Shown here: positions 2,174-62,251 of the stretch, piece after piece
Position numbering within the stretch: the first letter of the stretch is position 1
How the letters are laid out: the number at the start of each line of letters is the position of its first letter
Source: Desulfomonilia bacterium
GTDB lineage: Bacteria; Desulfobacterota; Desulfomonilia; UBA1062
Length of the DNA: 64,000 nt
NCBI GenBank assembly: GCA_050014195.1
Contig: JBEKDT010000006.1
Location: forward strand, 96,001 to 160,000
Direction of reading: 5' to 3'
Notes under the pieces: model-generated
What the model was told of the DNA's origin: nothing
The model's input: the letters and a program-made list of their open reading frames with translations, nothing else
Databases searched by the model: none
Translations under genes and position numbers: made by a program

Positions 2174-3001
2174 TCAGACTGCAACCTTGAGAATACCGTA
2201 GAGCAAACACCCCACGAACATGATGCCATCCATGCGGTCCAGCATCCCACCATGGCCGGGGATGAGGTTCCCCAGATCCTTGATCTGGAATTCCCGCTTG
2301 AACAGAGACGCGGTAAGGTCTCCCGCCAGGTCAAGAACGCCGATGCATGCGGACAGCAGGATCAGGAGCCAGACAGGATAGAAACCCTCCAGGGGATCCA
2401 ACTGATAATAGACGATAACCTTATTATATATAAGAAAGACGGCATAGCCGAGTACGATGCTCGAACATATCCCGCCGATGAAGCCTTCCAGGGTCTTCTT
2501 TGGGCTGAGCCTGGGCGCTATTTTGCGGCTCCCGAGGTTCTTGCCCACATAGTATGCCCCGACATCGGATCCGAAGACACCGACAAGGCCGAAGATCATC
2601 CAGAATCTGCCGTCCATGCCCACCCTTAACAATACCCAGAATCCGATCAATGCCATGGGATAGATCAGACCTGCCAGGGAATAGACAAGATCTTTAGCGC
2701 CTGCCCTGTTCTTCTCAAAGAGGAAGAGTGATGTGATCATGAGGATGACACCCGTGACGCCCACCACAAGAAAGCACCCGGCCATGTCTCCCTTATAGGC
2801 AAAAAGGAGGAACGGGACAGACGCGACAATGGCTACCAATGCCAGTGCTAAGGCGCTGGGGCTGATGGCCACCCGGAACAGCTCATACATGCATATGGGC
2901 ACCACCAGCATGGCGATAAGCAGCAATGCCCAGGCAGGACCGAAGACAGCAGGGATGGCGAAGATAATAATAAGGATAAGCGCCCCCATGATTCGTTTCA
3001 T
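2174..3001 (-). CDS. cdsA: Phosphatidate cytidylyltransferase
   Basis: SDVGAY, SPKKTLEG and IKDLGNLIPGHGGMLDRMD motifs; start placed at ATG 3001, overlapping the uppS stop. Confidence 0.95.
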   Translation of the reverse strand: MKRIMGALILIIIFAIPAVFGPAWALLLIAMLVVPICMYELFRVAISPSALALALVAIVASVPFLLFAYKGDMAGCFLVVGVTGVILMITSLFLFEKNRAGAKDLVYSLAGLIYPMALIGFWVLLRVGMDGRFWMIFGLVGVFGSDVGAYYVGKNLGSRKIAPRLSPKKTLEGFIGGICSSIVLGYAVFLIYNKVIVYYQLDPLEGFYPVWLLILLSACIGVLDLAGDLTASLFKREFQIKDLGNLIPGHGGMLDRMDGIMFVGCLLYGILKVAV

Positions 3002-3714
3002 ATGAGAGAGCCCCCCACCTGTTCGCCTGTCATGCCGAAGCGCCTCTGTCTGCTCGTAAACCACATGATGGCTTCATCCAGGGCATTCTCATTGAAATCG
3101 GGCCAGAGGATGTCGGTAAAGTAGATCTCGGTATAGGCCAGCTGCCACAGCAAAAAATTGCTCACCCGGCGCTCTCCTCCTGTCCTGATGAGAAGGTCAG
3201 GGTCGGGCATGAATGCGGTGTCCAGGGTGGAGGAAAAAGATTTTTCCGTAATCTCATCAGGGTTGATCCCGCTTGATACAAGCCTTTTCGCAGCCCTTAC
3301 TATTTCATCGCGCCCCCCGTAATTCAGGGCAATGGCCAGGTGCAGGTCGTTGTTGTCTTTTGTCAAGTCAAGGGTCATTTTGATCTTGTCCTGGAGCTTC
3401 TTTGAAAACCGGGACATATCACCGATGATATGGATGCACACCCCGCTCGTCTTGAGTCGCTTTACCTCTTCCTCGATGAAGTGCTCAAGAAGATTAAAAA
3501 GGCCTTCGACCTCTTCCTTGGGCCTGCTCCAGTTCTCAGATGAAAAGGCGTACAGCGTGAGGTATTTGATGGCCCTTGCTTTTGCCGCCTCAACGATCCT
3601 CAAGGTGGCCCTTGCTCCCATTTCATGGCCCTTAAGCCGTGGAAGGCCCTGCCTCTGAGCCCACCTCCCGTTGCCGTCCATGATGATGGCGAGGTGGTTG
3701 ACCTGGTTTTGCAT
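2998..3714 (-). CDS. uppS: Undecaprenyl diphosphate synthase
   Basis: HLAIIMDGNGRWA, FSSENWSRP, NYGGRDEI and RTGGERRVSNFLLWQ motifs; ATG at 3714. Confidence 0.97.
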   Translation of the reverse strand: MQNQVNHLAIIMDGNGRWAQRQGLPRLKGHEMGARATLRIVEAAKARAIKYLTLYAFSSENWSRPKEEVEGLFNLLEHFIEEEVKRLKTSGVCIHIIGDMSRFSKKLQDKIKMTLDLTKDNNDLHLAIALNYGGRDEIVRAAKRLVSSGINPDEITEKSFSSTLDTAFMPDPDLLIRTGGERRVSNFLLWQLAYTEIYFTDILWPDFNENALDEAIMWFTSRQRRFGMTGEQVGGSLI

Positions 3715-3722
3715 GAGTGAAC

Positions 3723-3751
3723 TTGTTAACACAGGGGGTATGGGGGGTCAA
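3723..3751 (-). promoter_or_regulatory. Putative sigma70 promoter of uppS, possibly leaderless
   Basis: TTGACC-17 nt-TAACAA with a TG extension; ATG lies 8 nt downstream with no Shine-Dalgarno. Confidence 0.4.
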
Positions 3752-3774
3752 CAATCAGTAGGGAGAGAATTTAT

Positions 3775-3882
3775 GGGTGAACAGTGATCAGTGACCAGTG
3801 AATAGTGCAAAGCGAACCGTGCATAGGTCGCGTTTCAATCGCAGGGTCATTGCGAGGAGCTGAAGGCGACGCGGCAATCTCA
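3775..3882. repeat. Left arm of a multi-layer inverted repeat (heptamer tract + 13-bp box + 39-bp RPE-like arm)
   Basis: 3844-3882 is the reverse complement of 6600-6638 (2 mismatches); 3814-3826 matches 6663-6676; CAGTGAW-type heptamers at 3775-3807 match 6718-6764. Confidence 0.85.
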
Positions 3883-3884
3883 CA

Positions 3885-3916
3885 CTAGGGTGGGTGGAGC
3901 GTCAGCGGAACTCACC
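3885..3916 (+). repeat. REP-like palindrome (TAGGGTGGGT..AACTCACC)
   Basis: GGTGGGT pairs with ACTCACC around an inner GC hairpin; resembles GTAG-family REPs. Confidence 0.45.
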
Positions 3917-3992
3917 TCTAATATCTCTTCCATTGAATAACCCATCGAATGGGGCTGGAACCAATTCATCATCTTGACAACTGCCAGCCATA

Positions 3993-4052
3993 TATAAACG
4001 ACAAAGCTCACCGGCGCGCGTCAGCGCGTCCGTGTGGATGCCCTTGTTCGCC
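3993..4052 (-). mobile_element. Integron attC site of the yefM-yoeB cassette
   Basis: Minus strand GGCGAAC-AAGGGCATCCACACGGACGCGC-TGAC-GCGCGCCGGTGAGCTTTGTC-GTTTATA, 13 nt after the yoeB stop. Confidence 0.8.
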
Positions 4053-4065
4053 TGATCACATCTGG

Positions 4066-4329
4066 CTATTCGTAGTGTGTCCACATACGGATGACTTTTA
4101 CTGTTTTGATGTCATCAAGTATTTGGTAAATCAACCGGTGTTGGATGTTTATTCTCCTGGAACATGCTCCCGACAGATCTCCAAGAAGCTTCTCAAAAGG
4201 TGGGGGAGTCTGGTATGGATCTTCTTTAAGGATATCTAGCAGGTGCTCTGCCTGATGTTTTAGACCTGAATGTGCGATCTTCTTGGCATCTTTTTTTGCC
4301 TGTTTGGTAAAGACCAATCGCCAAGTCAC
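4066..4329 (-). CDS. yoeB: Txe/YoeB-family (RelE superfamily) toxin
   Basis: PFEKLLGDLSGACSRRINIQHRLIYQ...MWTHYE, typical YoeB C-terminus; overlaps the antitoxin stop. Confidence 0.93.
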   Translation of the reverse strand: MTWRLVFTKQAKKDAKKIAHSGLKHQAEHLLDILKEDPYQTPPPFEKLLGDLSGACSRRINIQHRLIYQILDDIKTVKVIRMWTHYE

Positions 4330-4568
4330 CAGTCAAGATCCTCATTGCACTCCTCTACAGGAGTCTCAAGTCCCTTCTGAATAGATTCACGCATACCCGG
4401 AATAGAAGTGAGGTACAAAGTTTCCTGGATTGCTCGCCAATCCTCCTCTGAAATTAGCACTGCGGAACTTCTTTTGCCTACAATCTGAACCGGCTCATGG
4501 GATTCTTTCACCTCATCGACAAGGCTATATAATCGTTTTCTTGCTTCTGTTGCTGTAAGTGTAGCCAT
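4326..4568 (-). CDS. yefM: Phd/YefM-family antitoxin
   Basis: TATEARKRLYSL...HEPVQI...AVLISEEDWRAIQETLYL; SD AAGGAGG. Confidence 0.93.
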   Translation of the reverse strand: MATLTATEARKRLYSLVDEVKESHEPVQIVGKRSSAVLISEEDWRAIQETLYLTSIPGMRESIQKGLETPVEECNEDLDW

Positions 4569-4582
4569 TATTATGAACCTCC

Positions 4583-4625
4583 TTAGCGTACGATATAGCG
4601 TACGCTACAAAACATCCAGTGTCAA
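4583..4625 (-). promoter_or_regulatory. yefM-yoeB promoter with tandem palindromic operator
   Basis: TTGACA-17 nt-TACGCT; TAGCGTACGATA and TAGCGTACGCTA palindromes overlap the -10/+1, as in autoregulated Phd/YefM operons. Confidence 0.75.
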
Positions 4626-4635
4626 GCTATTTGAA

Positions 4636-4692
4636 GGCGAATGCCTGCGTCAGTGGGAGCCGGCTTTTTCGGCGATCCACCGGAAATTGGGG
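4636..4692 (-). mobile_element. Degenerate attC site of the middle cassette
   Basis: Shares the GGATCGCCGA..CCGGCTCCC.CTGACGC core with the attC at 5184-5246; core sites read CCCCAAT and ATTCGCC and the left arm is shortened. Confidence 0.7.
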
Positions 4693-4709
4693 ACGACGGC
4701 AAGCACTAC

Positions 4710-4976
4710 CTACCCCTTCTTACCCAGGATTGCCGCGATTTTCTGCGCAGGCGTGATGCAACTCTGTGGGGTTAAACTGAGATCAAATGCTTGATTGAGA
4801 ACCTCCATCACGAGCAGCTCTGGTTTTACGGAATTGCCCCGTACCTTTAGCCCAAAGATTATGTCGGAGGCCTCAACACGGTAACCATTAAGATCTGCAA
4901 CGTTTCTTGCGCCTTCTCCCAGTGGATTCCACTTGGCAAGAACGTTTGCGACAGCAGTGATTTGTTCTTCGTTCAT
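4710..4976 (-). CDS. Small helical protein, DUF1871-like (88 aa)
   Basis: ATG 4976 with AGAGGA SD; WNPLG...GYRVEASDI pattern; family assignment is from memory. Confidence 0.7.
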   Translation of the reverse strand: MNEEQITAVANVLAKWNPLGEGARNVADLNGYRVEASDIIFGLKVRGNSVKPELLVMEVLNQAFDLSLTPQSCITPAQKIAAILGKKG

Positions 4977-5167
4977 TTGTGTCCTCTGTGTTCTGGTCAC
5001 AATCTCGCCCAGAATTCCTGATATGGCATGACATGCTCATGCTTGGTTCGCCAATGTGCATCGATGCCGTCCCATCCGTTGCCTTGAAACACATGACCAC
5101 ACTCTGGACAAATGCGTGGCAAATCCTTATTTTGATTTTTATCGCAGCACGAACAGGATTTATTCAT
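4973..5167 (-). CDS. Small Cys/His-rich putative Zn-binding protein, interrupted by an in-frame TGA at 4997-4999 (absent from the ORF track)
   Basis: SD TAGGAG; MNKSCSCCDKNQNKDLPRICPECGHVFQGNGWDGIDAHWRTKHEHVMPYQEFWARL*PEHRGHK*; the second stop overlaps the next ATG. Confidence 0.7.
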
Positions 5168-5183
5168 GAGTATCTCCTAGAGC

Positions 5184-5246
5184 CCCCAACACGAGCGTCA
5201 GCGGGAGCCGGATTTATCGGCGATCCGCTGCACGCACTCGTTCGGG
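5184..5246 (-). mobile_element. Integron attC site of the nuclease cassette
   Basis: CCCGAAC-GAGTGCGTGCAGCGGATCGCCGATAAATCCGGCTCCCGCTGACGCTCGT-GTTGGGG, 2 nt after the stop; imperfect palindrome. Confidence 0.85.
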
Positions 5247-5248
5247 AA

Positions 5249-5917
5249 TCATCTTTTCCATACCATCCGTCCAATTGACACAAACTTGTTGACCGTCAAA
5301 GAACCCCGTTCGTTGCGGGCTTTTGATCCAGGACGCCTCAATTCTTTTTCTGTTTCTGGCCTCTTGGCCTCATGAATTTCCCGAACCTGAAAATCATGAC
5401 CAAGTAACGCAAGCAGGACAACATCCCATTCTTTCTCCAGGTTGATACTGCCCAGTCGTTGGCCTGGCTTGGGATTATCCGCCATTGCTCGTGACTTGAT
5501 CTGGATAAACTCTTCGCGACCGTCCACTCTTCGCACGGCATCGTACCCTGATTGCCTCACCGGTGCCCTATCCAATCCGAGCAACCGGCATGTCTCATGT
5601 TCGGCGATCTCGCCGGTAACACCGAGGGGGCGCCCGGTAGTTTCGTAGTATTGTTTTGCAACGATCCTGGCTTCTTCAATCAATTGATTTACGTAGTCGT
5701 TGTTATAGCTTTCATGCTGTTTGTGTGGATAGAGCCACCCCTTGATGATTCCGTCCCGGAAAAGAGCAGAGGCATATTCCTCAGAGCTCAGGTTCGACCT
5801 GTTTTTCCTTCGTTCGACAAGTCCCTTTCTCTCGGCGTCTGAATACGATTTAATGCATGCGGATTCATTGCCGTCGTGCTCAACGAAAAGCTGTTTCATG
5901 AGTTCCCGCTGTTTCAT
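5249..5917 (-). CDS. Putative PD-(D/E)xK nuclease (DUF6998-like) with an extra N-terminal module
   Basis: TGEIAE...QSGYDA...FIQIKSR gives an E..D..QxK restriction-endonuclease-like pattern. Confidence 0.65.
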   Translation of the reverse strand: MKQRELMKQLFVEHDGNESACIKSYSDAERKGLVERRKNRSNLSSEEYASALFRDGIIKGWLYPHKQHESYNNDYVNQLIEEARIVAKQYYETTGRPLGVTGEIAEHETCRLLGLDRAPVRQSGYDAVRRVDGREEFIQIKSRAMADNPKPGQRLGSINLEKEWDVVLLALLGHDFQVREIHEAKRPETEKELRRPGSKARNERGSLTVNKFVSIGRMVWKR

Positions 5918-5925
5918 GGTTTACT

Positions 5926-5993
5926 TCCCGAACTATTACTATACCGACACCACGAATATTGATATTTGTGAATTCGGTATAAGTGGCTAATAG
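5926..5993 (-). mobile_element. First-cassette core site (GTTCGGGAA) plus an upstream AT-rich hairpin (atypical attC or attI remnant)
   Basis: TTCCCGAAC at 5925-5933 is complementary to 5240-5248; TATACCGA..CACGAATAT-TG-ATATTTGTG..TCGGTATA stem. Confidence 0.55.
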
Positions 5994-6110
5994 ACACGGA
6001 ATGTGGAAAAGATGTGGTGGCTAACCCATGACCGTGACAATATCTCCATTTCATAATATTATAGCCTACATGATATGATGGTCTGCCGTAAGATATTTAA
6101 ATGGTCTAAA

Positions 6111-6471
6111 GAGCCAATTGCAAAAATTAAAAAGGTTCATCACAGTAAAGCATACTCGGCTCATTGAAGAGCACACAAAAGGGATATTCCACCACGAAGG
6201 ACACGAAGAGCACGAAGAAGATCTAAAAACCAGAACAAACACTCTTGGATCCATTGAACCGGTCAACGATTTCAAAAGGCTTTCTTTCTTCGTGTCCTTC
6301 GTGGTGAGAACAATGGGCTGGGAAGAGGATGCAAACCACGAAAGTATGCTTCACAGAGAAGAACCATTAAAAAAGAGTCACCTCCGCGAAAGCGGGGGTC
6401 CAGAAGTCCATGAAGAGACTGGATTCGAAGCTTTCGTAGGAATGACATCCAAAGAGTTTTGCAATTACCTC
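6111..6471. mobile_element. Non-autonomous element with GAG..AATTGCAAAA termini carrying a dRS3/RPE-like palindrome
   Basis: GAGCCAATTGCAAAA / TTTTGCAATTACCTC termini with TAAA on both flanks; inner GTCACCTCCGCGAAAGCGGGGGTCCAG...CTGGATTC...GGAATGAC at 6377-6446. Confidence 0.6.
6134..6365 (+). mobile_element. MITE copy A (23-bp imperfect TIRs, 8-bp TSD ATTAAAAA)
   Basis: GGTTCATCACAGTAAAGCATACT...AGTATGCTTCACAGAGAAGAACC; ATTAAAAA at 6126-6133 and 6366-6373; homologous to 61838-62196. Confidence 0.85.
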
Positions 6472-6525
6472 TAAAGACTAAAATTACTCGGCCGGGTGGA
6501 TGGAATGAAAGAAGGCATTGGGTGG

Positions 6526-6555
6526 CACGGGCCAAGGCTGGAGGCCTTGCCCGTG
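6526..6555. repeat. REP-like GC-rich hairpin
   Basis: CACGGGCCAAGGC-TGGAG-GCCTTGCCCGTG. Confidence 0.5.
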
Positions 6556-6599
6556 GGATTTATTTGTGGGTGTCATTGAATGAAACCTTCTCTACAGGA

Positions 6600-6764
6600 T
6601 GAGATTGCCACGTCGCCTTCGGCTCCTCGCAATGACCCCAGAATAATACTAATAATATTCCTCTATGCAACGGTTCTTTCATTATCTGTTCACAGTCACT
6701 ATTAAGTAATCGTTAATCACTATTCACTGTTAACTGATCACTGATCATTGGTCACTAAACACCC
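6600..6764. repeat. Right arm of the multi-layer inverted repeat
   Basis: Reverse complement of the three layers at 3775-3882, in mirror order. Confidence 0.85.
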
Positions 6765-6804
6765 TGTATCTTCCGCCCCTTTTCAATCATTCTCCCAGCT
6801 CTGA

Positions 6805-6853
6805 AAAATTTATTTTTTGCCCCTTGACTTTCCCCTAATCATTGAGATACAGA
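6805..6853 (+). promoter_or_regulatory. Putative promoter of the tRNA-tuf operon
   Basis: A/T-rich UP-like tract, TTGACT at 6824, weak -10 (TACAGA). Confidence 0.4.
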
Positions 6854-6887
6854 CTCTTGGTGCGCAAGCTATGGGTGCGCCCGGAAG

Positions 6888-6963
6888 GCTGGAGTAGCTC
6901 AATCGGTAGAGCAGCTGATTTGTAATCAGCAGGTTGCGGGTTCGAGTCCCATCTCCAGCTCCA
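6888..6963 (+). tRNA. tRNA-Thr(TGT)
   Basis: Cloverleaf, anticodon arm CTGAT-TTGTAAT-CAG, GTTCGAG T-loop, encoded CCA. Confidence 0.97.
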
Positions 6964-6974
6964 GAGAGACTTCG

Positions 6975-7059
6975 GGAGGGGTTCCCGAGCGGCCAAAGGG
7001 AACAGACTGTAAATCTGTCGGCGAAGCCTACGGAGGTTCGAATCCTCCCCCCTCCACCA
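6975..7059 (+). tRNA. tRNA-Tyr(GTA)
   Basis: ACAGA-CTGTAAA-TCTGT anticodon arm, long variable arm, CCA. Confidence 0.97.
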
Positions 7060-7121
7060 TAAGAATGAGGGATTGCAGGAGACGTGAGTCGTTTATGACT
7101 GCACAATCCTAAGAAAATGAT

Positions 7122-7198
7122 GCGGGAGTAGCTCAGTTGGCTAGAGCGTCAGCCTTCCAAGCTGAGGGTCGCGGGTTCGAATCCCGTTTCCCGCTCCA
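7122..7198 (+). tRNA. tRNA-Gly(TCC)
   Basis: TCAGC-CTTCCAA-GCTGA anticodon arm, CCA. Confidence 0.97.
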
Positions 7199-7225
7199 TA
7201 TCCCCTCTAGTTTTTGTGGAGACAT

Positions 7226-7303
7226 GCCCACGTAGCTCAGTAGGTAGAGCACTTCCTTGGTAAGGAAGAGGTTTCCCCGGTTCGATCCCGGGCGTGGGCT
7301 CCA
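7226..7303 (+). tRNA. tRNA-Thr(GGT)
   Basis: CTTCC-TTGGTAA-GGAAG anticodon arm, CCA; completes the canonical thr-tyr-gly-thr-tuf order. Confidence 0.95.
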
Positions 7304-7349
7304 CCTGAAAAGGCTTGTGCGGAGAAAAAAATTATAAAGGGGGAAGTAC

Positions 7350-8546
7350 ATGGCTAAGGAGACATTCAAGAGGACGAAGCCGCATGTGAATGTGGGGACG
7401 ATTGGTCATATTGATCATGGGAAGACGACGTTGACGGCGGCGATCACGAAGCATTTGGCGAAGAAGGGCATGGCCGAGTACGTGGCGTATGACCAGATAG
7501 ATAAGGCTCCGGAAGAGAAGGAGCGAGGGATCACGATCAACACGGCGCATGTGGAGTATGAGACGGAGAAGAGGCACTATGCGCACATCGATTGTCCTGG
7601 ACATGCGGACTACATCAAGAACATGATAACGGGAGCGGCGCAGATGGACGGGGCGATATTGGTGGTGGCGGCCTCTGACGGTCCGATGCCGCAGACGCGT
7701 GAGCACATTTTGTTGGCGAAGCAGGTGAATGTGCCGGCGATGGTGGTATTCATGAACAAGGTGGACCAGGTGGACGATCCGGAGTTATTGGAGCTGGTGG
7801 AGCTGGAGCTTCGGGAGCTTTTGAGTGCGTATGATTTTCCTGGGGACGAGATACCGATCATACGGGGGAGCGCGTTGAAGGCTCTTGAGACGGATGATTC
7901 GGATGGTGCGGATGCGAAGTGCATATTTGAGTTGATGGATGCGGTGGACAGCTACATACCCGAGCCGGTCAGGGACATAGACAAGCCGTTTTTGATGCCT
8001 GTAGAGGACATATTTACGATCAGCGGGCGCGGTACGGTGGTGACGGGCCGAGTAGAGCGCGGGATCATCAAGGTAGGGGACGAGGTGGAGATAATAGGGA
8101 TACGACCCACGATCAAGACGGTGTGCACGGGCGTTGAGATGTTCCGGAAGACGCTGGATGAGGGTCGTGCCGGGGACAATGTAGGGGTGCTGATCCGTGG
8201 GACGAAGCGTGAGGAGGTGGAGAGGGGGCAGGTAGTGGCGAAGCCCGGATCGATCAATCCGCACGTGCATTTCAGCTCTGAGGTATATGTATTAAAGAAG
8301 GAAGAGGGTGGTCGTCACACGCCGTTTTTCACGGGGTACCGGCCGCAGTTTTATTTTCGGACGACGGACGTGACGGGGGACATCAAGTTGCCCGAGGGGG
8401 TGGAGATGGTGATGCCCGGGGACAACGTGACGATGGAAGTGACGCTGATAGCGCCTATAGCGATGGAAGAGGGGTTGAGGTTTGCCATTCGAGAGGGCGG
8501 CAGGACCGTGGCATCCGGCGTCATCGTCAAGGTCATCCCGGACTAA
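7350..8546 (+). CDS. tuf: Elongation factor Tu (tRNA-linked copy)
   Basis: [16 protein letters not shown] and NKVD motifs. Confidence 0.99.
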
Positions 8547-21335: not shown

Positions 21336-23423
21336 GTGAAGAGATCAGTCCCGATAGAGAGACTCAGGAACATCGGTATCATGGCCCACATCGATGCGGG
21401 CAAGACCACGACTACCGAGCGCATCCTCTACTATACGGGGCGGAGCTACAAGATCGGCGAGGTGCATGACGGCCAGGCCACCATGGACTGGATGGAGCAG
21501 GAGAAGGAGCGCGGCATCACCATTACCTCGGCCGCCACGACCTGTTCCTGGAAAGACCACATCATCAACATCATCGATACCCCCGGCCACGTGGACTTCA
21601 CTATCGAAGTGGAGCGCAGCTTACGCGTGCTTGACGGGGCCGTGGCCGTCTTCTGCGCCGTAGGCGGCGTAGAGCCTCAGTCCGAGACGGTCTGGAGACA
21701 GGCTGAGCGTTATAAAGTCCCCAGACTCGCCTTTGTCAACAAGATGGACCGTGTCGGGGCCGACTTCCTGAATGTAGTAAGCCAGATCAAGAACAAGCTC
21801 GGGGCCAATGCCGTGGCACTCCAGCTCCCCATGGGGCAGGAGGAGCACTTCGCAGGCATCATCGACCTCGTCGAGATGAAGGCCGTCACCTTTGACGAAT
21901 CCAGCAAGGGTGCAAGTTACGGCTTTATCGATATACCGTTCGAGTACAAAGACATCGCAGATGAATACCGCGAGCGCCTCGTTGAATCACTCTGCGACGC
22001 CGATGATGCCATTATGGTGGCATACCTGGCGGGCGAGCAGATCGGAAACGAAGCCATCAAAAAGGCCGTTAAGAAGGGCACGCTCTTAGGCCTGGTAACG
22101 CCGGTTCTCTGCGGGTCGGCCTTCAAGAACAAGGGTGTGCAGCCGATGCTGGATGCCGTTGTGGACTACCTGCCGTCGCCTGTAGAGGTCGGTGCCGTCA
22201 AGGGAAAGAGCGAAAGCGGTGAGGATGCGAGCCGTAACCCAAGGGACGATGAACCCTTCTCCGCGCTGGCCTTTAAGGTGATGAACGACCCGTACGTGGG
22301 ACAGCTCACCTTTATCCGCGTGTACTCGGGCGTGCTGAATTCGGGCGATACCATCTATAACTGCAGCACGACCAAGAAGGAACGCATCGGAAGGCTCGTG
22401 CGGATGTATGCCGACAAGCGCGAGGAGATAAAGACGCTGTGTACGGGTGAAATCGCTGCAGTATTAGGACTCAAAAACACCATCACGGGCCACAGTCTGT
22501 GTGACCCTGATAAGCCCATTATCCTGGAGTCCATGGACTTCCCGGAACCGGTCATATCCATTGCCATCGAGCCCAAGAGCAAGTCCGACCAGGAAAGACT
22601 GGGCTTTGCGCTTTCCCGGCTTGCCATGGAGGACCCGTCCTTCAGGGTGCAGTCCGATCGTGAGACCGGCGATACACTCATCTCGGGCATGGGCGAACTC
22701 CATCTGGAGATCATTGTGGACAGGCTTAAGAGGGAGTTCAGCGTTGAGGCCAATGTCGGCAAACCCCAGGTGGCTTACCGTGAGACCATCACCAAGACCG
22801 TTCGGGAAACCGTCAAGTACGTCAAACAGACCGGCGGTCACGGGCAGTACGCCCATGTGGTCATATCCGTGGAGCCCCTGGAGCCGGCATCAGGTTTCGA
22901 ATTTGTGAACAAAATCGTAGGCGGCGTGATACCACGCGAATACATCCCTGCAGTAAAGAAGGGGATTGAAGAGTCTCTGGTGATAGGGCCCATTGCCGGA
23001 TATCCTGTCCAGGACATGCGGGTATCGCTCCTCGACGGGTCGTTCCACGAGGTGGATTCCTCCGAGCTTGCCTTCAAGATCGCAGGCTCCATGGCACTCA
23101 AGAACGCACTCAAAAAGGCAGGCCCCATCATGCTCGAGCCCATCATGGACGTCGAGTCGGTCTGCCCTGTTGACTATGTAGGAGATGTGATCAGCGACCT
23201 CTCTTCCCGGAGGGGCAAGGTGCTCGGCATGGACACCCGCTCCGATGTCAGGGTAGTGGCCGCCCAGGTCCCGCTGGCTGAGATGTTCGGCTATGCAACC
23301 GCGCTGCGCTCCTTGACCCAGGGCCGGGCAACCTTTACCATGCAGGTATCCCACTATGAGCCGGTGCCGGGGAACATCTCCGATACGTTAAAAGTTTCCA
23401 GAGGAGGGCAACTCTATGGCTAA
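21336..23423 (+). CDS. fusA: Elongation factor G
   Basis: [24 protein letters not shown]. Confidence 0.99.
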
Positions 23424-24612
23424 GGAGACATTCAAGAGGACGAAGCCGCATGTGAATGTGGGGACGATTGGTCATATTGATCATGGGAAGACGACGTTGA
23501 CGGCGGCGATCACGAAGCATTTGGCGAAGAAGGGCATGGCCGAGTACGTGGCGTATGACCAGATAGATAAGGCTCCGGAAGAGAAGGAGCGAGGGATCAC
23601 GATCAACACGGCGCATGTGGAGTATGAGACGGAGAAGAGGCACTATGCGCACATCGATTGTCCTGGACATGCGGACTACATCAAGAACATGATAACGGGA
23701 GCGGCGCAGATGGACGGGGCGATATTGGTGGTGGCGGCCTCTGACGGTCCGATGCCGCAGACGCGTGAGCACATTTTGTTGGCGAAGCAGGTGAATGTGC
23801 CGGCGATGGTGGTATTCATGAACAAGGTGGACCAGGTGGACGATCCGGAGTTATTGGAGCTGGTGGAGCTGGAGCTTCGGGAGCTTTTGAGTGCGTATGA
23901 TTTTCCTGGGGACGAGATACCGATCATACGGGGGAGCGCGTTGAAGGCTCTTGAGACGGATGATTCGGATGGTGCGGATGCGAAGTGCATATTTGAGTTG
24001 ATGGATGCGGTGGACAGCTACATACCCGAGCCGGTCAGGGACATAGACAAGCCGTTTTTGATGCCTGTAGAGGACATATTTACGATCAGCGGGCGCGGTA
24101 CGGTGGTGACGGGCCGAGTAGAGCGCGGGATCATCAAGGTAGGGGACGAGGTGGAGATAATAGGGATACGACCCACGATCAAGACGGTGTGCACGGGCGT
24201 TGAGATGTTCCGGAAGACGCTGGATGAGGGTCGTGCCGGGGACAATGTAGGGGTGCTGATCCGTGGGACGAAGCGTGAGGAGGTGGAGAGGGGGCAGGTA
24301 GTGGCGAAGCCCGGATCGATCAATCCGCACGTGCATTTTAGTTCCGAGGTATATGTATTAAAGAAGGAAGAGGGTGGTCGTCACACGCCGTTTTTCACGG
24401 GGTATCGGCCGCAGTTTTATTTTCGGACGACGGACGTGACGGGGGACATCAAGTTGCCCGAAGGGGTGGAGATGGTGATGCCCGGGGACAACGTGACGAT
24501 GGAAGTGACGCTGATAGCGCCGATCGCGATGGAAGAGGGATTGCGTTTCGCCATTCGAGAAGGCGGCAGGACCGTGGCATCCGGCGTCATCGTCAAGGTC
24601 ATCCCGGACTAA
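23416..24612 (+). CDS. tuf: Elongation factor Tu (str-operon copy)
   Basis: Protein identical to 7350-8546. Confidence 0.99.
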
Positions 24613-24649
24613 ATTTAAGGATATCGAGAAGAAAACAGGAGTAGACACG

Positions 24650-40505: not shown

Positions 40506-40705
40506 GATCAAACTCCTTTTTTAGAGATGGATAACGATATAAAGTGCCTTCGGATGCCCCTCCGGAATCCTTGTTCATACTTTCATGTAATATAAGAGCC
40601 AGACCGTCCCAGGCAAGGAATCTGCAGAGCTGGAATAATAGTAAGAACGCCTTCAGGCGAGATCGGACACAGGGAAGAAAGGGAACAGATTTATTTTCTA
40701 AAGGG

Positions 40706-40803
40706 GCCTAACCATCGGTTTCACGAGGACCGCCAGGACCGTCCGGCCCTGCAAAGTTAAACGTACACTTTGCCCTAGCGGCCGCTGATGCCTACCGTTT
40801 CGG
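40706..40803 (+). mobile_element. attC-like site upstream of hicB-hicA
   Basis: GCCTAAC...GCAAAGT/ACTTTGC hairpin...GCTGATGCCTACC-GTTTCGGTG; its 3' core nearly complements CACCGAAC at 41296. Confidence 0.6.
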
Positions 40804-40831
40804 TGTATGAGTGCACGGCGAAAAACCAGTA

Positions 40832-40860
40832 TTGCATATCCACTTTGTGTACGATACTAT
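40832..40860 (+). promoter_or_regulatory. sigma70 promoter of hicB-hicA
   Basis: TTGCAT-17 nt-TACTAT. Confidence 0.65.
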
Positions 40861-40878
40861 GTTTTATAAGGTGACCTC

Positions 40879-41079
40879 ATGAGAATCGAGATAGAAAGAG
40901 AGGATGATGGCCGCTGGATAGCTGAAATCCCAGAGCTGCCCGGTGTATTAGCCTATGGAGATACTCGTAAACAAGCCATTGCAAAGGCAGAAGCGTTGGC
41001 GTTGCGAGTTCTGGCTGACCGACTTGAGCATGATGAAGAGATTCCAGAACTCAAGGAAGTGTTTGCAGTCTCCGCATGA
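40879..41079 (+). CDS. hicB: Short HicB-family antitoxin
   Basis: EREDDGRWIAEIPELPGVLAYGDT..A; no DNA-binding domain. Confidence 0.9.
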   Translation: MRIEIEREDDGRWIAEIPELPGVLAYGDTRKQAIAKAEALALRVLADRLEHDEEIPELKEVFAVSA

Positions 41080-41291
41080 GTCAGTGGCCATCAACTAGGC
41101 CCCAGCAAGTTCTAGCAGCTCTTTTTCGTATTGGTTGGGTGATCAAAAGACAGTCTGGTACATCTCATCGTATTCTTGCTCGTCCGGGTTGGCCTGATTA
41201 TGTTTTCGCCTTTCATGATCGTGAAGAGATCGGTCCGAAAATGCTGGCACGGATTTCGAAACATACAGGTCTTACTCCTAAAGATTTGTGA
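41076..41291 (+). CDS. hicA: HicA-family mRNA interferase toxin
   Basis: GW..KRQSGTSH...FHDREEIGPKMLARI. Confidence 0.9.
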   Translation: MSQWPSTRPQQVLAALFRIGWVIKRQSGTSHRILARPGWPDYVFAFHDREEIGPKMLARISKHTGLTPKDL

Positions 41292-41296
41292 TAATC

Positions 41297-41360
41297 ACCG
41301 AACAAAGGCATCCAGAAGGACACGGGCTGCCGCCCGCGCTACTGATGCGTGTCGTTGAAT
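41297..41360 (+). mobile_element. Integron attC site of the hicBA cassette
   Basis: ACCGAAC-AAAGGCATCCAGAAGGACACGGGC-TGCC-GCCCGCGCTACTGATGCGTGTC-GTTGAAT; related to the attC at 3993-4052. Confidence 0.8.
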
Positions 41361-41398
41361 GAATATCCCTGCGATTAACAAACAGTCGTATTTTTCAG

Positions 41399-61837: not shown

Positions 61838-62196
61838 GATTCTTCTCTGAGAAGCATACTTATATGGTTAACATCTTTTCCTCAGCCCATTGTTATCACC
61901 ACGAAGGACACGAAGAGTGGTTCGCATCCTAATTCTTTTCTCACCACGAAGGACACGAAGAGCACGAAGATGATCTAAAAAATGCAAACAAACACGCTTA
62001 GACCCTTTGAACTGGTCCGCAATTTCTATAAAATCCTTTTTTCGTGTCCTTCGTGCTCTTCGTGGTGAAGTACTCTTCTGTCTGCTAGAGCCCATGCTCC
62101 ATTTTGGTTGCGGCTATGCTGCGCTAAGCTCTTCGTGGTGGAATATCCCTCTCTCGTGCTCCGCAATGATCCGAGTATGCTTTACTGTGATGAACC
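61838..62196 (-). mobile_element. MITE copy B (8-bp TSD TTATTCCG)
   Basis: Inverted homolog of 6134-6365; TTATTCCG at 61830-61837 and 62197-62204; four CACGAAG-repeat arms. Confidence 0.85.
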
Positions 62197-62251
62197 TTAT
62201 TCCGGGTTGGGGGATACTGAATGCTAAACCCTGACATCGGTCTCACAGCAG

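Follow-up and report, generated by a model that had tools for sequence, protein, structure and literature searches.

Introduction

Bacterial miniature inverted-repeat transposable elements (MITEs) and palindromes of the repetitive extragenic palindromic (REP) and bacterial interspersed mosaic element (BIME) type are known from examples such as Correia, ERIC, Nezha and the REPINs; REPs are usually species-specific, and Rickettsia palindromic elements (RPEs) are known for their in-frame insertion in genes. Heptamer repeats, the short tandemly repeated repetitive (STRR) sequences, were reportedly found in cyanobacteria by Mazel et al. in 1990. In the account given in PMC2670836, STRRs are hairpin-forming repeats of 7 bp whose function is unknown. 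Integron cassette arrays that have no integrase and in which at least two attC sites are clustered are defined in PMC4889954 (2016) as attC-site clusters that lack integron-integrases (CALINs), and single attC sites lacking integron-integrases (SALINs) and the insertion at attG sites are described by Loot et al. (bioRxiv 10.1101/2022.09.11.507474). Hairpins of the NTS/SRM type (CGTCATTCCCGCG..GCGGGAATCYRG) are tied by Chenal et al. (2025, PMC11893778) to the small Ssn GIY-YIG nucleases (cd10448), which act on single strands. In this study, we analysed the spacer between uppS and a tRNA-Thr gene of a Desulfomonilia bacterium within a 64 kb stretch of DNA (hereafter the window), in which an original prediction had placed an integrase-less cassette array enclosed in a three-layer inverted repeat. 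The locus is a real, largely ordinary mosaic of known mobile DNA. All of its parts are of known kinds, i.e., a CALIN, a MITE/SRM-like palindrome and STRR-like tracts, and what is unusual is the arrangement of these parts together with the cross-species evidence for a bracket that lasts longer than what it contains.

The source genome, G000, is an assembly of 4,215,580 bases in 29 contigs; the other G-numbers denote related genomes, which were compared in a family set of 52 genomes and a genus set of 15 genomes. The stretch was present in 24 peat and wetland metagenome runs, and its host is an organism of peat and wetland metagenomes.

Results

Bracket of mirrored repeats

The mirrored arrangement of three layers is real, and chance is excluded. 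Heptamer tracts, boxes and long arms were all found in the positions and the mirror order that had been predicted (Table 1). The tracts match each other in inverted orientation in 27 of 30 positions (3778-3807 against 6718-6747), and they are the only period-7 arrays of their unit in the window according to Tandem Repeats Finder (TRF); the whole G000 genome has 26 tracts of at least three NAGTGAN units. The strict box pattern has five matches in the genome, two of which are at the locus. The arms are 39 nt long, 95% complementary and separated by 2717 nt. Their core, the 12-mer GTCATTGCGAGG, was found twice in the window at up to one mismatch versus 0.26 occurrences expected, a count that was reached in four of 100 shuffles. 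At up to eight mismatches, the 39-mer arm has four copies in the 4,215,580-base genome, and pairing by chance is not to be expected at such an abundance. Taken alone, an arm does not fold (z +0.7 and +1.1), which corrects the original prediction; the hairpin needs a left and a right arm as a pair, and the canonical copies described below reach z values from -6.8 to -9.0.

The boxes and the arms belong to a MITE of the genus. The arm pattern is present in four of the 15 genus genomes and has 13 copies in G002, where most of the arms sit within near-identical elements of ~140 nt (~9 copies) that carry the box at their ends and contain no ORF (open reading frame). Their order is the terminal inverted repeat GAGACCTTTGCATAAC, the long arm, a loop of ~30 nt, the short arm GGGATTGCTTCGCTGCGCTCGCAATGAC and the inverse terminal repeat, and the 140-nt element folds at z -9.0. 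Being short, multi-copy, bounded by terminal inverted repeats and free of ORFs, it is a MITE, and because its ends are the box, the box of the locus is a MITE terminal repeat. It resembles MITEs and REPs in its near-identical copies, its terminal repeats and the nesting of elements; it differs in that no parent insertion sequence or RAYT-type transposase was identified and in that a 33-nt core of its arm is identical across phyla. No consistent target duplication was seen by eye around the G002 copies, and no parent element was found.

Both G000 modules align solely to the left half of this MITE, from the box through the long arm, and neither has the short arm. The alignment of the left module extends from the box as far as GGCAATCTC, and that of the right module continues through ...ATCC..AGAGAAG, after which there is no short arm; CAATGAC, a possible remnant to the right of the right long arm, is too weak to be counted. 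A short partner of its own near each arm was considered and rejected, since the MITE alignment ends before the short arm in both modules. The same module, always in the internal order of tract, box and long arm, is also found at C6:54,470-54,585 and, in a diverged form, on C4 near 1,445.

The G002 MITE has no heptamer tracts, and in G000 the tracts often adjoin other dispersed repeats; four of those examined lead into a box and an arm. The tandem 7-nt units of G000 are similar to STRRs in that they are intergenic, often lie just past stop codons and sometimes form inverted pairs. They differ in that the host is not a cyanobacterium, the unit is NAGTGAN and, at the locus, the tracts adjoin the MITE ends. 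A loosely defined inverted partner within ~100 nt was seen by eye for six to seven of the 26 tracts. A strict rule (at least two perfect inverted units) found a partner within 200 nt for one of the 26 and one additional pair 311 nt apart, and inverted heptamer pairs were therefore rejected as a general form of an empty palindrome.

Beyond the genus, the exact 33-nt arm TCATTGCGAGGAGCYGAAGGCGACGYGGCAATC was found at at least 121 loci in other genomes of many phyla in a scan of one genome per species. Its hosts include Sphingomonadaceae, Beijerinckiaceae, Nitrospirae, Patescibacteria, Chloroflexi, Planctomycetes, Rhodothermales and Oscillospiraceae. The flanks could be read for 80 loci (L057-L136), nearly all of which have a short arm 10-60 nt downstream. 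These loci are usually two-arm hairpins of 75-110 nt, and in a few of them both arms are long (L072, L082, L097); the canonical cross-phylum unit is a two-arm palindrome with an asymmetric internal loop. The predicted membership in a palindrome family with arms that are normally spaced by tens of bases is thus upheld, and the accompanying comparison with RPEs proved to be generic: both are palindromic, dispersed and non-autonomous, as compared by description and not by sequence, but the repeats of the locus are not inserted in-frame in genes. A scan of 11 canonical arm loci against Rfam (E up to 0.1) gave no family. A text search of the literature with sub-strings of the arm gave nothing relevant among the papers listed, as judged by title, and the element may be described under another name.

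Among the known systems, Ssn is the closest analogue, not an established partner. The arms share the outer frame GTCATT ... stem ... AATC(C/T) with the NTS/SRM hairpins as described in PMC11893778, and in both cases the repeats form hairpins and occur in many copies in many phyla, with Sphingomonadaceae being prominent. Additionally, small GIY-YIG genes of 92-96 aa (Pfam E 1.4e-18 and 2.6e-16) were found among or between such repeats in two relatives. In G002, a 96-aa gene lies between two inverted arms (G002:C1:83827-84215; L045 5827-6215), and its ortholog in G003 lies among NTS-like hairpins (GTCATTCCCGCG...) at G003:C41 (L056); these genes may encode a nuclease of the Ssn type whose repeat specificity is new. 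The differences concern the stem, which is GCGAGG... in the arms versus CCCGCG... in the motif of PMC11893778, and the canonical unit, which is longer than the hairpin described there and is a palindrome of two arms with an asymmetric internal loop. The published SRM pattern, HGTCWYN(0-2)YYVSBRHN(0-5)WNVSBRGN(0-2)RNCYNB (PMC11893778), matches neither the long arm nor the short form on either strand, and it is not enriched in G000 (34 matches versus 21-34 expected). Because the SRM pattern is not matched, G000 has no GIY-YIG gene and none of the 80 readable arm loci is near one, we treat the system as an analogue only. A segment of repeat family B of the locus (6376-6403, AGTCACCTCCGCGAAAGCGGGGGTCCAG) fits the SRM pattern, and matches of the GTCACCCCCGC type are the commonest in G000 (6 of 34).

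Comparison with related genomes

The uppS/tRNA-Thr spacer is variable between the species of the genus, being short in ten relatives and holding other genes in three. The interval was extracted from 12 relatives. In the ten short ones (149-947 bp), conservation is limited to the uppS leader and the promoter region of the tRNA, and no arm, box, heptamer tract or empty palindrome was found in them; the intervals of G016, G019 and G021 are also short, as judged by coordinates. In G012 (4.6 kb) and G009 (~5 kb), the interval holds ordinary genes, such as those for an APH-type kinase and sulphur-transport proteins, and no attC.

Two inward-facing modules of tract, box and arm are carried in this spacer by G000 and its sister species G003 alone. 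In G003, they occupy the same site, with flanks that are 95% identical, and a box and an arm stand at both ends in mirror order, both arms being interrupted. A dispersed repeat of ~80 nt separates GACGTGG from CAATCTC in the left arm, which is the position that it also occupies in a MITE at G000:C5:182457-182533, and ~190 nt are inserted after GTCATTGCGAG in the right arm. The 8.2-kb cargo of G003 is unrelated to that of G000. It comprises a TetR gene, two acyl-CoA dehydrogenases, a split thiolase and unknowns, and one strong attC (56 bits) follows a 247-aa ORF that adjoins the right arm. An origin of this cargo as a translocated piece of G000 was rejected, as the cargo is absent from that genome, in which only paralog-level matches (65-70%) and dispersed repeats were found. 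Since the bracket is shared and the cargo is not, the bracket is older than its present cargo, and cassettes lie inside it in both species. The interval shows short, bracket-free forms and a form with alternative cargo among the relatives, as had been anticipated, but no empty palindrome was among the short forms.

The ~80-nt repeat, which spans 138-217 of the G003 pocket, has ~17 other loci in G000 (e.g., C15:128565/128738, C16:117319/117488 and C3:202837/202988), where it often occurs in pairs ~170 nt apart.

Cassette array and nested repeats

In G000, the DNA between the modules consists of a CALIN and three nested dispersed repeats, and it differs from that of G003. The five ORFs between the arms are all encoded by the minus strand, with an imperfect hairpin after each gene group. 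The block of toxin-antitoxin (TA) genes has homologs elsewhere in five relatives (71-85% nucleotide identity), and the homology ends exactly at GGCGAAC after the yoeB stop codon and at GTTCGCC upstream of phd, which reads ATTCGCC in G000. In G009 and G019, these homologs lie in arrays with the classical attC layout, i.e., xxxxAAC, a bulged stem, a loop, a stem and GTTxxxx. A covariance model (R1) was built from eight G009 and G019 sites; 80% of its cells are paired versus at most 41% when slid, and seven pairs are changed on both sides in a compensatory manner. With filters off, the two best matches of this model in the window were 3992-4052 and 5183-5246, both of which are on the coding strand right after stop codons. 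The match at 5183-5246 is independent of the training set, and that at 3992-4052 is not, as the orthologous sites of G009 and G019 are included in it.

The sites were judged by an R'' of RYYYAAC, an R' of GTTRRRY and an imperfect stem with extrahelical bases and a variable loop over ~57-141 nt. The imperfect, bulged stem and the variable loop are found at the locus, and the AAC...GTT core is present in two of the four candidate sites (5183-5246 and 3992-4052). In the former, the unpaired bases lie in the 5' half of the coding-strand stem, and the segment 5168-5250 folds as single-stranded DNA into a 60-nt stem-loop with bulged bases (-18.6 kcal/mol, z -2.9). The remaining two sites are decayed. 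At 4640-4709, R' is ATTCGCC versus GTTCGCC in the relatives, R'' is unrecognisable and both core triplets are lost; this site was seen by repeat and alignment and was not found by model R1 at E up to 10. The short hairpin at 3890-3916 carries the L' core alone, with neither AAC nor GTT, and was not found by the attC model; it probably represents either an empty cassette or the last attC in a degenerate form.

With two sound sites 1.1 kb apart on the same strand and two decayed ones, the cargo is a CALIN by the published definition (at least two attC within 4 kb on one strand, no integrase), with a clade-specific model replacing that of IntegronFinder. The predicted integrase-less array, its defence gene and its TA pair are borne out by the attC model, the PADLOC match to mREase_II and the Phd-YoeB pair. 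The array agrees with the CALINs of PMC4889954 in its two or more attC, which share a strand, are separated by less than 4 kb and have no intI in the vicinity, in being small, like most of them, and in its cassettes, which hold small ORFs without a family match, a TA pair and a defence gene. G000 also resembles half of the CALIN-bearing genomes counted there in having no IntI. It differs in that its sites come from a clade-specific model and two of the four are degenerate. Moreover, it is bracketed by inverted MITE halves and followed by nested repeats, a setting that was not seen in the descriptions of CALINs and SALINs in PMC4889954 and bioRxiv 10.1101/2022.09.11.507474.

The cargo segment 3883-6099 has no other copy in the G000 genome. 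A search of the other 51 family genomes (E 1e-10 or better) gave no homolog of its 222-aa restriction enzyme, and the protein has neither a Pfam match nor a sequence relative in PDB. The 96-aa ORF has no match in Pfam, PADLOC or NCBIfam; a likeness to DUF1871 is a lead only, given by an Atlas feature score of 0.91 to clusters that partly hold DUF1871.

A second small cassette unit was observed at 40700-41361 of the window, where a HicB-like gene (40879-41079) and HicA (41076-41291) are followed by an attC match (41297-41361; 20.3 bits, E 0.002). An attC-like end (...GCGGCCGCTGATGCCTACCGTTTCGG) was seen by eye near 40770-40803, and this unit has no arms or heptamer tracts. Additionally, a further copy of repeat family A lies near the window end (61840-62201), with runs of the 9-mer CACGAAGAA at 61945-61970 and 62041-64.

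Loss of the integron integrase

In the G000 genome, the attC model has 36 matches at E up to 0.1. The best match to TIGR02249, the integron integrase, reaches 82.7 bits versus a cut-off of 265, and tblastn with the IntI proteins of the relatives found only a 48-aa C-terminal remnant (C10:179,410-179,553) that touches the first attC match on C10, in the region C10:179410-180339. This remnant at an attC indicates that G000 lost its integron integrase. IntI above the cut-off is present in 25 of the 52 family genomes and in eight of the 14 other genus members. Furthermore, no transposase, invertase, IntI or GIY-YIG nuclease able to act on the arms was found in G000.

Large arrays without an integrase were also observed, with at least 16 attC matches at C1:150,627-164,388 and five at C7:209,936-213,889. 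At G000:C5:182360-185100, an arm-bearing MITE with a short arm and an interrupted long arm lies directly upstream of cassettes in the order of ORFs of 244 and 310 aa, an attC (184398-184456) and a pair of a Phd-like 100-aa and a ParE/RelE-like 96-aa ORF, assigned to these families by eye only. A palindromic element of ~100 nt (ATATACTGCA...TGCAGTATAT) is found at L021 2690-2792, at G000:C5:182582-182684 and at ~15 G000 loci, including C1:149389-149485. It lies just upstream of the first ORF of the cassette unit in G003 and at G000:C5, and one copy lies ~1.1 kb upstream of the first attC of the large C1 array; the element may serve as an operator or a promoter or be another MITE.

Flanks and features of the locus

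The flanks are as predicted, with uppS on the minus strand at the left and the tRNA-Thr gene on the plus strand at the right. A scan of 3600-7400 against Rfam (E up to 1) returned tRNAs only, and promoter and terminator scans of 3650-6950 gave counts that were not above those of shuffles (5 versus 4.1 and 5 versus 3.2). The window also holds two copies of tuf (7350-8546 and 23416-24614), 16 kb apart and with 99% nucleotide identity.

Table 1. Features of the uppS/tRNA-Thr spacer of G000 and its flanks, in window coordinates
Feature	Position	Strand	Basis and remarks
uppS (undecaprenyl diphosphate synthase)	2998..3732	-	Pfam Prenyltransf E 1.4e-84; syntenic in relatives; conserved left flank
Left heptamer tract (NAGTGAN units, STRR-like)	3775..3807	+	TRF period 7 at 3777-3807, 4.4 copies
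Left box GAACCGTGCATAG	3814..3826	+	Corresponds to terminal inverted repeat GAGACCTTTGCATAAC of the genus MITE
Left long arm GGGTCATTGCGAGGAGCTGAAGGCGACGCGGCAATCTCA	3844..3882	+	37/39 complementary to 6600-6638
Cassettes: methyl-directed restriction enzyme; 56-aa and 96-aa pair; Phd-YoeB; degenerate last site	between arms	-	attC model, alignments
Short hairpin with attC-type L' core CCGCTGACGC	3890..3916	-	Abuts left arm; GAGCGTCAGCGG 12/12 common with attC 5183-5246
attC of Phd-YoeB cassette	3992..4052	-	R'' GGCGAAC ... R' GTTTATA; model R1 42.9 bits, E 1e-9
yoeB/txe-type toxin, 87 aa	4066..4329	-	TIGR02116 E 2e-27, above cut-off; Pfam YoeB_toxin, ParE_toxin
phd/yefM antitoxin, 80 aa	4326..4568	-	Pfam PhdYeFM_antitox E 1.5e-17; TIGR01552
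Degenerate attC of cassette 2	4640..4709	-	Central part 29/32 identical to attC 5183-5246
ORF, 96 aa (probably 88 aa from internal ATG)	4710..5000	-	80% nucleotide homolog in G007:C9
ORF, 56 aa, two CxxC pairs	4997..5167	-	Zinc-ribbon-like by eye; no family match (Pfam, PADLOC, NCBIfam)
attC of restriction-enzyme cassette	5183..5246	-	R'' CCCGAAC ... R' GTTGGGG; model R1 23.1 bits, E 3.5e-4
Type II methyl-directed restriction enzyme, 222 aa (defence cassette)	5249..5917	-	PADLOC mREase_II E 2.1e-38
Repeat family A, nested-palindromic, MITE-like	6100..6370	.	Inverted repeats; 41 other G000 loci
Dispersed repeat family B	6367..6466	.	12 other G000 loci
Dispersed hairpin repeat family C	6486..6564	.	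16 other G000 loci
Right long arm	6600..6638	-	Inward of arm: ~16 nt of MITE loop sequence
Right box GAACCGTTGCATAG	6663..6676	-	Pattern search
Right heptamer tract	6716..6764	-	TRF period 7 at 6716-6756, 5.9 copies
tRNA-Thr(tgt)	6888..6963	+	ARAGORN, Rfam tRNA; first gene of conserved right flank Thr-Tyr-Gly-Thr-tuf

Orientation of the enclosed segment

The comparison with G003 suggests one past inversion since the split of the two species, with a crossover in the inverted heptamer tracts. The left module of G003 matches the right module of G000 (77/95, score 102) better than the left one (75/106, score 48). Two substitutions that distinguish the arms are, by eye, distributed crosswise, with both right-arm letters in the left arm of G003 and the left-arm T in its right arm. 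Moreover, the 31 nt inside the left arm of G000 and those inside the right arm of G003 agree in 26 positions, which is the sole pair of inner flanks above background, and the outermost heptamer units are conserved by side between the two genomes.

The contigs of four metagenome runs (2018-2025) are colinear with the locus and show no differences over 3000-6190, 6295-6628 and 6609-6923. No joint with a change of strand was listed in them, although contigs cannot show a rare inversion or excision. A joint from 6448 to 6733, which skips 284 nt and occurs in all four runs at the depth of the organism, was not counted because its shorter side has 24 letters; it is most likely another family B copy beside a heptamer tract elsewhere. 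Features of an invertible segment were not seen: the contigs of the four runs have a single orientation, and 3733-6887 contains no recombinase ORF. Of the proposed inversion, the hint on an evolutionary scale stands, but an inverted form was not present in the contigs of the four runs.

Discussion

In this study, we attempted to explain how a cassette array came to lie between mirrored repeats. It is probable, in our judgement, that the region represents a passive mosaic, composed of known mobile DNA within a variable spacer, and not a dedicated machine, on which an integron integrase acted in trans and in which the inverted modules were passive. The cassettes would have been delivered and exchanged by the integrase in trans while the lineage still had intI, and the later loss of intI in G000 would have frozen the array, the core sites of which would since have been decaying (ATT for GTT and one R'' lost). 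The inverted modules would have no recombinase of their own and would act as passive substrates for homologous recombination; being long and inverted, these repeats have probably permitted one or more RecA-type flips of the segment between them after G000 and G003 had split. As to the origin of the two modules, we lean slightly towards one symmetric palindrome that was split by an insertion rather than two truncated MITE copies. Two left halves cannot be derived from an insertion into a long/short palindrome, and a symmetric long/long form is therefore needed.

Several observations weigh against this account. The attC model is home-made, its best match at the locus is orthologous to two of the training sites and two of the four sites were not detected by it. 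The first cassette has no defined 5' boundary, neither an attI nor an attG-like junction was recognised at the locus and the step that is ascribed to the integrase is one that we infer. The symmetric long/long palindrome was not seen in the genus, and it exists elsewhere (L072, L082, L097). The solo modules at C6:54470-54585 and on C4 near 1445 indicate that pairing is not obligatory. As regards the flip, gene conversion between inverted copies would look alike, and the comparison covers stretches of at most 95 nt in two genomes. Additionally, the one detected cassette of G003 points away from the attC-like remnant beside the arm, whereas a simple flip of a single array predicts otherwise. A nuclease or recombinase that cuts at GGCAATCTCA would contradict the reading of the region as a passive mosaic.

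A less favoured explanation, which we regard as unlikely though deserving of consideration, is that the centre of a symmetric palindrome, prone to form hairpins or cruciforms, is a repeatedly used target for incoming DNA, including cassettes inserted by IntI. This is the better of the two options in the original prediction, and it rests on very few independent events. G000 and G003 have a common bracket with unrelated cargo, each with at least one attC, but they form one sister pair only, and two uses of the site are indistinguishable from turnover inside one old insertion. The arms are targets of insertion, as the ~80-nt repeat entered at the same position twice and the right arm of G003 is split by ~190 nt, and long/long palindromes occur in other phyla; however, none of the ten short intervals has an unoccupied palindrome. 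An attC is present within 5 kb of two of the eight G000 arm loci (the present one and C5:182.4-184.5 kb) versus an estimated ~0.3 expected, and the neighbourhood at C5:182.4-185.1 kb is a second one in which an arm and an array meet. Since accessory regions gather all kinds of repeats, this association is confounded by the general clustering of repeats. IntI is described as inserting cassettes at non-att sites of the genome (bioRxiv 10.1101/2022.09.11.507474), but the attG sites in that account are double-stranded and unstructured, and the arm ends show no recognisable GWT-type junction.

A related proposal is that hairpin-forming, SRM-like palindromes are preferred sites of docking and breakage for single-strand-acting recombination, where cassettes would enter and where the split halves would later flip the array; we consider it quite improbable.

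Even more doubtful is a non-autonomous mobile or switchable unit, in which the modules would be terminal repeats for an enzyme supplied in trans, such as an Ssn-like GIY-YIG nuclease, a transposase or an invertase, that moves or flips the block. Inverted ends around a cargo resemble a composite element, yet the cargo is single-copy with no other locus in G000, no target duplication was seen and the same chromosomal site holds other cargo in G003. A composite transposon is not indicated by a bracket that stands at one site in G000 and G003, with no further copy of the cargo and no duplicated target. That the modules of G000 and G003 are related crosswise is in keeping with an inversion; against this stands the one orientation, with no strand-change joint listed, in the contigs of the four runs. 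A GIY-YIG gene does lie in a thicket of hairpins at G002:C1 and in the orthologous G003:C41, in G002 between inverted arms, and the arrangement NTS-ssnA-NTS has been likened to insertion sequences (PMC11893778). However, G000 has no IntI and no GIY-YIG homolog (none better than E 1.3 by tblastn), and a GIY-YIG ORF lies within 400 nt in none of the 80 arm loci of other phyla, for which reasons such a nuclease was rejected as the mover. Ssn enzymes are, moreover, described in PMC11893778 as single-stranded DNA nucleases that affect transformation, not as transposases. The claim that the arms form a unit that moves the cargo is not supported, as the cargo has no other copies and no acting enzyme was found in G000.

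Finally, a chance mirroring of common repeats without a shared history, for which one may cite the repeat-rich genome (families A, B and C with 41, 12 and 16 other loci, and 26 heptamer tracts), deserves practically no credence and is effectively refuted by the counts, as all three layers are mirrored, G003 has the same bracket and, with only four long arms in 4.2 Mb, the chance of another arm within 3 kb of a given arm is ~0.004 by arithmetic.

The passive mosaic that we prefer has a bearing on the biology of integrons. CALINs are common, and they may arise by loss of the integrase, by rearrangement or by insertion at secondary sites. The locus is a dated natural example, in which a lineage with active integrons includes one species without intI and with several frozen arrays, one small array being located inside a bracket of repeat halves that the sister species fills with different DNA. 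Attention is also drawn to the 33-base core of the arm, which is letter-identical from Patescibacteria to Sphingomonadaceae and fits neither the published SRM pattern nor any Rfam family. If the association of palindrome and array held beyond this pair of genomes, structured DNA would be indicated as an entry site for cassettes, and if the palindromes were indeed docking sites for single-strand-acting recombination, they would provide a mechanism for seeding CALINs away from attI.

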